DNA from: a virus
Lineage: Duplodnaviria; Heunggongvirae; Uroviricota; Caudoviricetes
DNA: 35,266 nt
Virus record (IMG/VR): IMGVR_UViG_2645727970_000011
Location: 1-35,266 of that record
Reading direction: 5' to 3' (one strand)
The position numbers and the translations under genes are program-made. Shown here in pieces: positions 12,224-35,266 of the stretch (positions are counted from its first letter, which is position 1; every line of letters starts with the position of its first letter). The notes under the pieces are model-generated. The model searched no databases. It was not told the DNA's origin and worked only from the letters and a program-made list of their open reading frames with translations.

Positions 12224-12298
12224 GGGTCAGTCGTATAAAGGTCATTACGGAAGGCTGTTAACCTTCTTATCGTGGTTCGAGTCCACGCTGTCCCGCCA
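12224..12298 (+). tRNA. tRNA-Asn (anticodon GUU), 75 nt including encoded CCA
   Basis: Hand-folded cloverleaf: acceptor GGGTCAG / CTGTCCC (one U-U mismatch), anticodon stem GAAGG / CCTTC with loop CTGTTAA, T-arm CGTGG-TTCGAGT-CCACG, discriminator G and CCA. Not run through tRNAscan. Confidence 0.6.
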
Positions 12299-12303
12299 AA
12301 CAT

Positions 12304-12379
12304 GCTGGTTTAGCTCCAATGGTAGAGCGGTCGCCTTGTAAGCGAATGGGTAGCGGTTCAAGTCCGTTAACCAGCACCA
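12304..12379 (+). tRNA. tRNA-Thr (anticodon UGU), 76 nt including encoded CCA
   Basis: Hand-folded cloverleaf: perfect 7-bp acceptor GCTGGTT / AACCAGC, D-arm GCTC-CAATGGTA-GAGC, anticodon loop CTTGTAA, T-arm AGCGG-TTCAAGT-CCGTT, discriminator A and CCA. Confidence 0.65.
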
Positions 12380-30856: not shown

Positions 30857-30924
30857 AGTTGAAGCCCCAACTGCGGGAACAGTCAGGGCTTCGGTATCAA
30901 CAAATCGGATTAGGAAATATTGAC

Positions 30925-31803: not shown

Positions 31804-31821
31804 CAGATAACCAACGCAACG

Positions 31822-31846
31822 ACCCAGCTTCGGCTGGGTTTTTTTA
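31822..31846 (+). terminator. Rho-independent terminator between ant and the tailspike gene
   Basis: 7-bp stem acccagc / gctgggt with ttcg loop, followed by a run of six T. Confidence 0.8.
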
Positions 31847-31903: not shown

Positions 31904-34033
31904 ATGACAGACATTACAGCCAATGTGATCGTATCAATGCCTTCGCAACTCTTCACTATGGCACGTTCTTTTAAAGCCGTAGCCAATGGTAAAATTTATA
32001 TCGGAAAAATTGACACTGATCCGGTAAATCCTGAAAACCGGATTCAGGTTTATGTGGAGAACGAAGATGGTTCTCACGTTCCTGTTTCGCAACCAATCAT
32101 CATTAACGCTGCCGGATATCCGGTATATAACGGACAGATTGCCAAATTCGTTACCGTGCAAGGCCATTCTATGGCTGTTTATGATGCATATGGTGCGCAG
32201 CAGTTTTATTTTCCTAATGTGTTGAAGTATGATCCTGATCAGTTTAGTTTGAAGCTATCCATGCCTGATGGGGCAGGTGAAATTGGATATCAATATAGAA
32301 ATAATGTTACATCTTCTTACCGAAGAGTAAACGACAAGCTTGATGAGCATGTCAGTATTCTGGATTTTCATAGAAATGTTGATGGTGGGTTAATCCTTCC
32401 TGCACAGAATGTTGATAGTAGACCATTCTTTGAGCGAGCACTTGTATACATTGAATCAATAGGCGGTGGCACTATTTATGTACCGGCTGGAAAATACTAT
32501 TTAAATTCATACAGTGAAATAGGGATCATAGGCACTGTCTTTAATGCAATATTGCCACTTTGCGATAATGTTAAAATTTTATTGGATACAGCGGCAGAAA
32601 TAGTTGTTGGTACTTTTTTTGATGACAAGCCTTTCCAGTTGTTTTTTGGTTCTTCGCCTTTGAAACCAAATCTTGTAGACGCTGTAAATAATGTTGTCAT
32701 AGAAGGTGGTACAATTAGCTTTAGTGGTTATAGCAGTATGATGAGAACAGCACCACTAAACAGAATTGCATTGCAGACAGGAAATATAGATAATCTTCGC
32801 ATATCAAATGTTACCTTTCGTGATGGTGACTTAACAAACGCTTTAGCGATAGGATACAAAAATCTAGGCAAATATGCAGTTGTTGAGAATTGCAACTTTA
32901 TTGACCTTATTCAGAACGGAATGAATAACGATCATAGTAGTATCTACCTTAATGCGTCATACTCTACAATTAATAATTGCAACTTTATTTCCACGATAGA
33001 TAAAGGAAGGAAGATCGCTTGTGCTGTTGAGTTGCATAAATCTTTCAATAGTTGGATTGGTGGTAATGTTGATGGCTATACACGTGGTGCTTTTATAAAC
33101 GCTATTGATACTGAATCATCTCTTGTAGAAAACACCAGAATTGAATCAGTTACCGCTAGAATACTACACCAGTTTGTAGCGTACTCGTTCGGTTCTAATG
33201 GGGTTATAAGAAATAGTCTTGTTTCAGGAAATAATGTAACAACTCTTGCGAGAAGTTCATCCGATACAGATCCTTCAGAATTTGGACCTTGCAGTCTCTG
33301 CGGTTGGGTGTCATATGGTAGTTTTGCAAATGCAGAAGGCCTAAATATCGTAGTTGAAAATAATACATACATTGTTGATGAATCAGTACAAGATTCATAT
33401 AGTTGCGTATTTTATGCAATCGCAAATGTTTCAGGTGTTACTGTTCGTAGAAACAGTGTTGGAGCGAGAACTTTTTTCTACAACCCAACCCCATCACTAA
33501 ATCTTTACAATTGCCATTTTTATGAAAACAGGTTTGAGGAATCGTATGTACAGAGCGGTTCAGAAAGATTTTTATATGATCTTAACTGTAATCGTATTTC
33601 TCAAAGCACTTTCGAAGCATTTGTTCCAATAAAAACAACTGCACTGACAGGAGTTATGAGGATTGACCCATCTACGCTCGGTCCGCAGAATCGTTTTGTT
33701 GTCGATACTCAGAATACAGATAATATTGAACACCCATTTATTACAAATTTGCCAGGTTTGCTCGGGCAGGATGGTACAACTTACTCATATCCGCAAAAAT
33801 GCGATGTCAACATCGGAGTTGGTTCTACACCTGTCCTATCTGTGATAAGTCCGGAAATAAGCACTGTAGACAGAGGACAGATTCTTAACAACGCGAACCT
33901 TCCATCTGGTTATGTCGCTCCGTCGTCGTTAATGAAGTACGATTCTACGCTTACAGGAGCTGGTGTCACAGTATCAGGGACGCCATCCGGTAATTATCAT
34001 GACGTGAGGATTCTACTGATAAGAGAACGTTAG
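31904..34033 (+). CDS. Tailspike: P22/HK620-type head-binding N-terminal domain plus divergent receptor-binding domain (709 aa)
   Basis: N-terminal ~115 aa ([64 protein letters not shown]...VLKYDPDQF) match the conserved tailspike head-binding domain from memory; the remainder is AT-rich and unrelated to the P22 sequence I recall. Confidence 0.85.
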
Positions 34034-34108
34034 ATAGGTCTTGCGCAGGGACGCGCAAATCATTCGGGATTGCAAGGCTTTGTGCTCTTCGATAGTGGTT
34101 AAGGTGGT

Positions 34109-35266
34109 TCACTCCACCTTCTCATCAAGCCAATCCGCCCACCACTGCATCATTTCTCTGCGCTTATCGAGATACTGAGCATGGTTGTAAATACCGCGCA
34201 CAGATCCGCCGTTGGCATGTGCCAGTTGCACTTCAATAGCGTCAGCAGGCCATTCGTGCTCGTTCATAATTGTGCTGAATTCATGCCTGAATCCGTGACC
34301 GCTTTCCAGACCCTCATAGCCGATTTGTTTGATCACAAGCAATACCGCGTTCTCGCAGATTGGCTTCTTCTTATCGTTGCGCCCGGCAAAAACAAACTCT
34401 GAGACTGGTTTGGTGATTGAGCTTAGCGTAGTGAGAAGTTCAACCACCTGGTCTGACATCGGGACCACATGAATTTTGCGTCCCTTCATCACACTGGCGT
34501 CGATGGTGATAATCCTGTTTTCAAAATCGACGTTCTTCCATAGCATGGAACGAAGCTCTTTCGTTCTTAGGGCAGTGTAGCGTAAAACTTTGGTCGCAAT
34601 GAGCGATACGATACTTCCTGAAAATGTTGCCAGTGCTTTGTTGAATGCAGGGATCTGGTCTGCAGGAAGAAACGGGAAGTTCTTCTTGCGGTATCCCTTC
34701 ATGGCGTCAGCAAGGTCAGGTGCCGGGTTATATTTAGCCCTACCAGTGACAATAGCGTAACGGAAAACCTCGCCGCATCTTCTGCGTGCTTTGTTGGCTC
34801 GCTCCATTGCGCCGCGATCTTCAAATCTGCGGATTACTTCCAGCAGTTGCATCGGCTCAATATCCTGAATTTCAAGACCGCCGATGATGGGTAAAATGTC
34901 GTCATCAAACATTTTGGCAAGTTCAGTTGCATAGCCTACTGACCAGACTTGCTTCTTGTGCTCGTACCATTCCTTGTAAATCGCACTAAAGGAATTGTTG
35001 TTAGACGAAGCCTTTTTCGCTTTTACCGGATCGATGCCAACCGAGATGTCTTTCCTCGCAGTCCATGCTTTATCCCTTGCCTCCTGCAAAGTCATAAGCG
35101 GATATTTTCCGACGGTCAGGATTTTCTCCTTACCGTCAATCTTGTAGCGAAGCTGCCATACCTTTTTCCCTGATACAGGGACATAAAGGTACAGGCCATT
35201 ACCATCGAGAAGGCGGTATGGTTTTTCTTTCGGCTTTGCTGCTTCAATCTGCTTAACGGTGAGCAT
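34109..35266 (-). CDS. int: Tyrosine integrase, P4-type (385 aa)
   Basis: ATG is exactly the last three bases of the window; N-terminal arm-binding-like domain (LTVKQIEAAKPKEKPYRLLDGNGLYLYV) and C-terminal catalytic region with conserved R, H-x-x-R and terminal Y (GIYNHAQY). Confidence 0.85.
   Translation of the reverse strand: MLTVKQIEAAKPKEKPYRLLDGNGLYLYVPVSGKKVWQLRYKIDGKEKILTVGKYPLMTLQEARDKAWTARKDISVGIDPVKAKKASSNNNSFSAIYKEWYEHKKQVWSVGYATELAKMFDDDILPIIGGLEIQDIEPMQLLEVIRRFEDRGAMERANKARRRCGEVFRYAIVTGRAKYNPAPDLADAMKGYRKKNFPFLPADQIPAFNKALATFSGSIVSLIATKVLRYTALRTKELRSMLWKNVDFENRIITIDASVMKGRKIHVVPMSDQVVELLTTLSSITKPVSEFVFAGRNDKKKPICENAVLLVIKQIGYEGLESGHGFRHEFSTIMNEHEWPADAIEVQLAHANGGSVRGIYNHAQYLDKRREMMQWWADWLDEKVE

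Follow-up and report, generated by a model that had tools for sequence, protein, structure and literature searches.

In phages specific for O-antigens, host range is determined chiefly by the distal domain of the tailspike. Such domains also serve as serotyping and decapsulation/depolymerase reagents, and the exchange of such a domain on a conserved anchor is the textbook form of a mosaic tailspike. The closest described counterpart of the spike studied here is gp9 of phage HK620, an endo-N-acetylglucosaminidase specific for the O18A1 O-antigen of E. coli (PDB 2vji, 2vjj and numerous mutant entries). Both the O18A1 and the O18A O-antigen are cut by HK620, which thereby places its virion in position for the DNA release triggered by LPS (PMC6024685). 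A further member of the same distal family, EP75 TSP1 (gp167), is active and O18A-specific, being 45% identical to HK620 yet differing from it in O18 sub-specificity (PMC8217332). A systematic description is available of how Lederbergvirus and Uetakevirus prophages exchange distal domains with one another while the serogroup specificity is kept (PMC10408124). The endorhamnosidases P22 gp9 and Sf6 gp14 resemble our spike in their homologous anchor (73% and 90%), their role and their genomic position, but their distal domains have no detectable sequence relation to it.

We analysed a 35,266-nt stretch of DNA (hereinafter the window), which represents a CUS-3/Kapi1/HK620-like P22-type prophage, with 95–97% identity to CUS-3 and Kapi1 over 47–75% of the late region outside the swapped modules. 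We consider it likely that the gene of interest encodes the tailspike of such a CUS-3/HK620-like P22-type (Lederbergvirus) prophage and that its product is an HK620-type hydrolase acting on a host polysaccharide, most likely a non-O18 O-antigen. The features on which the argument draws are as follows:

31821..31840, + strand: terminator-like site just 5′ of the spike gene, a GC-rich hairpin followed by a T-run
31904..34033, + strand: intact tailspike ORF of 709 aa (ATG at 31904, TAG at 34031-34033)
31904..32245, + strand: codons 1-114, head-binding (tail-anchor) domain (PF09008), ending in a D-P-D-Q-F linker
32246..33724, + strand: codons 115-607, neck and predicted right-handed parallel β-helix of the HK620 tailspike type, the AT-rich part
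32930..32932, + strand: codon of Asp343, counterpart of the HK620 catalytic Asp339, in the motif N-N-D-H-S
33029..33031, + strand: codon of Glu376, counterpart of the HK620 catalytic Glu372, in the motif A-V-E-L-H
33725..34033, + strand: codons 608-709 and the stop, predicted C-terminal β-sandwich (GC 44.8%)
34034..34090, + strand: 57-nt segment travelling with the spike, identical in all E. coli copies across different prophages

The genes 5′ of the spike comprise a full late-gene set of P22-type head, tail and ejection genes, including one for a gp16-like protein, and an immI region encoding two repressors of the Arc family (mnt/arc), the sar RNA and a Bro-N/P22_AR_C antirepressor (ant). Since the sar antisense RNA of this P22 immI region (RF00262, 71.6 bits; 30857-30923, − strand) overlaps the TTG (30859) at which the antirepressor ORF is listed to start, ant probably begins at a later ATG instead and would encode the 292-aa protein that is called in the sister contig L006. 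Further upstream, the packaging and head genes are preceded by genes for tRNA-Asn(GTT) (12224-12298, + strand) and tRNA-Thr(TGT) (12304-12379, + strand), both detected by ARAGORN and Rfam. The first kilobase of the window, which has an extreme AT skew (−0.43), holds a 322-aa ORF (204-1172, − strand) that matches PHROG 1376/21365 and is without a Pfam match; the small gene adjoining it (1208-1519, − strand) matches the superinfection-exclusion PHROG 1510. On the other side, the spike gene is directly followed by an integrase gene, beyond which a sister contig carries host genes resembling yfdC, mlaA, fadL and fadIJ.

The leader of the spike gene, with a GGAG 8 nt 5′ of the ATG, is common to HK620 and CUS-3, and the hairpin and T-run at 31821..31840 are of identical sequence in both phages, this site being the counterpart of tANT, the remnant ‘ant’ terminator annotated in the HK620 record. 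Within the spike gene itself, the opposite strand carries short ORFs only, as is typical of AT-rich DNA; promoter-like sites are no more frequent than in shuffled sequences, and no Rfam families were found.

Pfam returned a single domain on the spike, Head_binding (PF09008), with positions 1-113 of the 113-position profile aligned over residues 1-113 (E 2e-66; 221.7 bits vs a cut-off of 24). Over the N-terminal ~115 residues the spike is 97.4% identical to HK620, 89.7% to Sf6 and 73.3% to P22; the first-pass annotation, made from the sequence without database searches, had described this part as matching nearly residue for residue, which is true of HK620 and Sf6 and too strong for P22. The anchor DNA is 90–95% identical to that of CUS-3, HK620 and others, stopping at nucleotide ~341 of the gene. 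In the matching records (27 from phages and 1,070 from E. coli), megablast identity is likewise confined to the first 339-356 nt, and none of these phage and E. coli matches covers 80% of the spike gene. In a three-way alignment with HK620 and CUS-3, near-identity runs through the codons of D-P-D-Q-F (residues 110-114) and is followed by abrupt divergence. Thus, the two modules are joined by recombination at the D-P-D-Q-F linker, and the modular chimera proposed in the first-pass annotation is upheld, with nucleotide identity to known phages ending at the codons of D112-Q113-F114. The same anchor occurs with differing distal parts in ~25 PHROG families. The top PHROG of the spike (8280) is labeled as a tail spike protein with colanic acid degradation activity; its match covers residues 1-145 only, and we rejected that label for the catalytic part on this ground. 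PHROG 20900 matches the spike over its full length (E 3e-99).

Base composition changes along with the alignment. Codons 115-607 have a GC content of 36.7% (GC3 26%) and the N-terminal part 41.5%, vs 51–53% (GC3 52–54%) in the terL, portal and coat genes, in agreement with the AT shift noted earlier from the letters; no other 1.5-kb stretch of the window has a GC content as low as that of the distal part (z = −2.6). The corresponding DNA of HK620 differs in having 45.8% GC. The share of asparagine in our distal part (9.2%) is near that of HK620 (8.6%).

The first-pass annotation had taken the distal domain to be unrecognised. This does not hold, as a sequence search alone identifies it: a phmmer search against PDB sequences aligned residues 110-607 with the HK620 tailspike (2vji and ~25 mutant or complex entries, many of them D339/E372 mutants; E 7e-63). 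Its claim that the distal part is unrelated to the P22 endorhamnosidase proved correct, the P22 tailspike chains in PDB (8tvr, 2xc1, 5gai) matching residues 1-118 only; no sequence homology to the P22 β-helix (residues ~125-666) was seen, and on this basis a P22 gp9-type endorhamnosidase was rejected for the distal domain. Among characterised spikes HK620 is the best full-length match, at 43% identity by BLASTP over the whole protein and 28.9% in the family alignment over the distal residues 116-709; no characterised spike of high full-length identity was recovered. The similarity to HK620 is uneven: it reaches 51% over the neck (116-200) and 36% around the active site (291-400), and falls to 18–21% over the groove-forming residues 401-607 and to ~18% over the last 200 residues. 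D343 and E376 align with HK620 Asp339 and Glu372, the catalytic roles of which are taken from PMC8217332; neither residue varies in any of the 21 members of an alignment that takes in EP75 TSP1, K1ind1, SenALZ1, TaPaz TSP II and 14 uncharacterised proteins.

An AlphaFold2 model, computed as a monomer on a shallow alignment of 10 sequences and confident through the C-terminus, predicts for the distal part a right-handed parallel β-helix followed by a C-terminal β-sandwich in the HK620 topology. Its structural alignments to 2vji span ~550–620 columns, and the C-terminal domain is predicted to be structurally equivalent to that of HK620 despite ~18% sequence identity. The second-best structural match is APK14 gp49 (8oq1), with Sf6 being a remote β-helix fold match only (TM ~0.47). 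The β-helix suspected earlier from N-x-x repeats is hence supported by the model, and the proposed comparison with known spikes led to HK620. Homology, fold and catalytic pair all fit, and the distal domain belongs to the HK620-type family. Judged by sequence, this family is modest in size but real: an exhaustive HMMER search retrieved 63 cluster representatives (at 50% identity) at E<1e-30, many of the lower matches being confined to N-terminal profile columns of foreign origin, and a profile re-search of a word-indexed protein collection gained almost nothing and missed HK620 itself.

Because sequence homology, fold and both catalytic residues agree with HK620, the enzyme class appears assignable, by analogy, to an HK620-like endoglycosidase, in keeping with the earlier suggestion that the domain may be a glycanase. 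We also considered a lyase or a G7C-type esterase and rejected both, the nearest relatives in fold and sequence being the hydrolase HK620 with its conserved Asp/Glu pair. Codons 115-607 are predicted to form the domain that binds and cleaves the polysaccharide. Residues 1-114, the conserved head-binding domain, plug the spike into the tail hub. By analogy with the family, the spike would be a homotrimer; it would bind a repeating host surface polysaccharide along the β-helix of each subunit and act on it as an endoglycosidase, hydrolysing a glycosidic bond within the chain much as HK620 cuts its substrate at a GlcNAc linkage. Such cleavage would let the virion descend to the outer membrane and would set the host range. 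This activity and its substrate are extrapolated from a 29%-identical homologue, and since the segments over 401-607 are only 18–21% identical to HK620, even the type of linkage cleaved could differ.

The specificity is probably not O18, in view of the low identity to HK620 in the groove-forming parts and of the altered O18 sub-specificity already seen in the 45%-identical EP75 TSP1. One could instead regard the spike as a strongly diverged enzyme for the O18A/O18A1 receptor of HK620, given that it shares the fold of HK620, its length (709 vs 710 aa) and its catalytic residues; however, the distal identity of only 29%, dropping to 18–21% beyond the catalytic centre, and the EP75 precedent speak against this, and the complete E. 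coli genomes that were matched, including APEC O18, share the N-terminal anchor only. We accordingly regard an O18 receptor as very improbable and retain a non-O18 specificity as the preferred reading.

We then examined the distribution of the distal domain. The exact protein is found in a public collection, where it belongs to a 90% cluster whose 38 members are all from E. coli and bear generic names; variants are spread over four or more E. coli P22-like prophage contexts (near yfdC/fadL, bioA/bioB and yagU/ecpD, and with another integrase). No copy of the distal domain was detected by megablast and sensitive blastn in 5,426 complete E. coli genomes or in 50,697 phage records, both of which returned anchor matches only; in a set with one genome per species (185,579 species), a distal relative was recovered only in Citrobacter amalonaticus P55. 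The clade is rare. A literature search found no papers naming the protein accessions, assemblies or read sets of the carrier strains. The clade is nevertheless found on at least three types of tail anchor, its principal relatives being:

P0002: 815 aa, 86% identical to the distal domain, with a long N-terminus, in a Uetakevirus/phiV10-like prophage
P0003: 801 aa, 81% identical to the distal domain, with a long N-terminus
P0004: 73% identical to the distal domain, on a Tail_spike_N (PF18668) anchor
P0006, Morganella: 50% identical to the distal domain, on a head-binding anchor
L007:5433-7784, remnant in Citrobacter amalonaticus P55: 89% identical (92% at the nucleotide level), with an identical anchor/domain junction

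The P0002 locus is laid out like a phiV10/epsilon15-type prophage, with the spike gene accompanied by genes for an acyltransferase, holins, a GH19 endolysin and an integrase. The clade-mates belong to the same distal clade as our spike and resemble it in being co-linear over the full length and AT-rich (38–41% GC), whereas P0002, P0003 and P0004 differ from it in having other anchors and other phage backbones. Within the distal domain the identity to the window is itself distributed unequally: the neck/cap (residues 116-200; 32249-32503 in the window) is 82% identical to P0002 and 48% to P0003, and downstream of the neck P0003 is 81–93% identical to the window. As the neck of P0003 resembles that of Morganella P0006 while the rest is close to the window, a second internal recombination point is implied near G-K-Y-Y-L-N-S-Y-S.

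The Citrobacter copy is clearly decayed: only the last ~28 head-binding residues are left, the frame is shifted at FFDDKPFQ, and it lies among pieces of two genes, for a needle knob and a DnaB-like helicase. This decay would lend some color to the view that our spike is likewise a non-functional relic of a cryptic prophage, its ORF intact by chance and with no current role in adsorption. We find that view scarcely credible: the ORF of 709 codons is intact and keeps its catalytic residues, a full set of P22-type late genes stands 5′ of it, and several distinct prophages have kept this spike. Moreover, purifying selection on the spike gene is indicated by a dN/dS of 0.13 in the comparison with the P0002 gene (dS 0.66) and of 0.13–0.24 among the E. 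coli variants. A spike that functions in adsorption is hence the reading with which we proceed.

The 3′ end of the exchanged unit can be approached through the 57-nt segment that follows the stop codon. Its first 39 nt are also common to the Citrobacter remnant, and it includes a hairpin (TTGCGC-AGGGAC-GCGCAA, 34041-34058) 3′ of the spike stop. Beyond 34090 the DNA differs between the E. coli prophages carrying the spike. In the window, CUS-3-like sequence is back from ~34073, and by these sequence comparisons the exchanged cassette ends ~40–57 nt past the stop; as CUS-3 homology resumes just past the stop, only the distal domain was exchanged. The last 18 nt of 34034-34090 (CAAGGCTTTGTGCTCTTC) are also present in CUS-3 beside int, so that a recombination boundary may lie here. 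We thus envisage that recombination at the D-Q-F linker and ~40–57 nt past the stop imported a low-GC distal cassette, and that the same cassette circulates on Uetakevirus-type and Tail_spike_N-type spikes, elsewhere together with an Oac-like acetyltransferase that is missing here.

This last association was seen in three backgrounds (contigs L003, L004/L005 and L007), where a gene for an Acyl_transf_3 membrane acyltransferase lies directly 3′ of a related spike gene, namely those of P0002, P0004 and Citrobacter:

L003:4972-6072, − strand: Acyl_transf_3 gene
L004:3688-4698, + strand: Acyl_transf_3 gene
L007:7905-8903, + strand: Acyl_transf_3 gene

The L004 and L007 enzymes share 73% identity, and among characterised proteins the nearest to these companions is the O-antigen acetylase Oac of Sf6 (32% over the full length). 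In the window, including 34034-35266, tblastn with the three companions as queries detected neither an acyltransferase nor a remnant of one (best E 0.26), and the same queries gave no match at E<=1e-3 in six other E. coli loci with the spike.

The receptor is most likely an O-antigen, by analogy with the enterobacterial members of known substrate, all of which act on O-antigens, and because the Acyl_transf_3 gene, whose nearest characterised relative is Oac, follows a clade spike in three independent backgrounds. A competing view is that the distal domain is a capsule depolymerase, acting with the same fold and catalytic pair on a K-antigen or other exopolysaccharide. Its Acinetobacter phage relatives TaPaz TSP II (annotated as a capsular polysaccharide depolymerase) and APK14 gp49 are capsule depolymerases that keep the same D and E, and the sister prophage CUS-3 has a capsule-specific spike at the same position. 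Conversely, the characterised enterobacterial members HK620 and EP75 TSP1 both target O18 O-antigens, the Sf6-Oac-like acyltransferases that follow the relatives within the clade are the classic O-antigen seroconversion gene (an argument weakened by their absence from every E. coli copy), and no capsule-modifying gene such as neuO lies near the spike. We judge a capsular receptor unlikely and keep to an O-antigen.

A more far-reaching proposal is that the AT-rich clade (the window spike and P0002-P0005) defines a yet-uncharacterised polysaccharide specificity, maybe an O-antigen shared by rare E. coli lineages and Citrobacter amalonaticus, and that the clade may normally move as a pair of spike and Oac-like enzyme that would recognise and then mask the receptor, the E. 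coli P22-like prophages having kept the recognition half. We put this forward tentatively, as a proposal with slightly less than an even chance of being right. Were it true, the lysogens would not mask their own receptor, and superinfection and self-adsorption could be affected.

Set against the known systems, the locus is thus a variation on a familiar plan: the family, the fold and the swapping of modules are all known, and it entails no new mechanism or kind of system. It is of mild note that the distal domain is rare, has a very low GC content and is found on three or more types of anchor, and that the acetylase is lacking here. The lack of the acetylase sets the locus apart from its described counterparts: Sf6 has gene 14 and oac as a cassette of spike plus seroconversion, and 3′ of the spike CUS-3 has neuO and HK620 an O-antigen modification gene, whereas the window prophage has no Oac-like or other such gene beside its spike. 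In its mobility the domain has ready parallels. EP75 TSP1, the ‘tailspike 63D sialidase’ of K1ind and the SenALZ1 spike carry domains of the same distal family with the D/E pair, 25–26% identical to the distal part of the window, on Kuttervirus or Kagunavirus anchors; being on unrelated anchors, they show that the HK620-like domain moves between tail anchors. (The ‘63D sialidase’ label on relatives of our spike at L014:1000-3264 and L015:1096-3261 was rejected, as it derives from N-terminal similarity only.) With the window spike, the HK620 endoglycosidase family gains a member that is rare and intact and has a predicted structure; as the characterised enterobacterial members all target O18, a new substrate would widen the range of specificities of this scaffold. 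Knowledge of that substrate would also supply one more pair for the rule, applied in predicting phage host range, by which a given domain retains its serogroup on whatever anchor carries it (PMC10408124).
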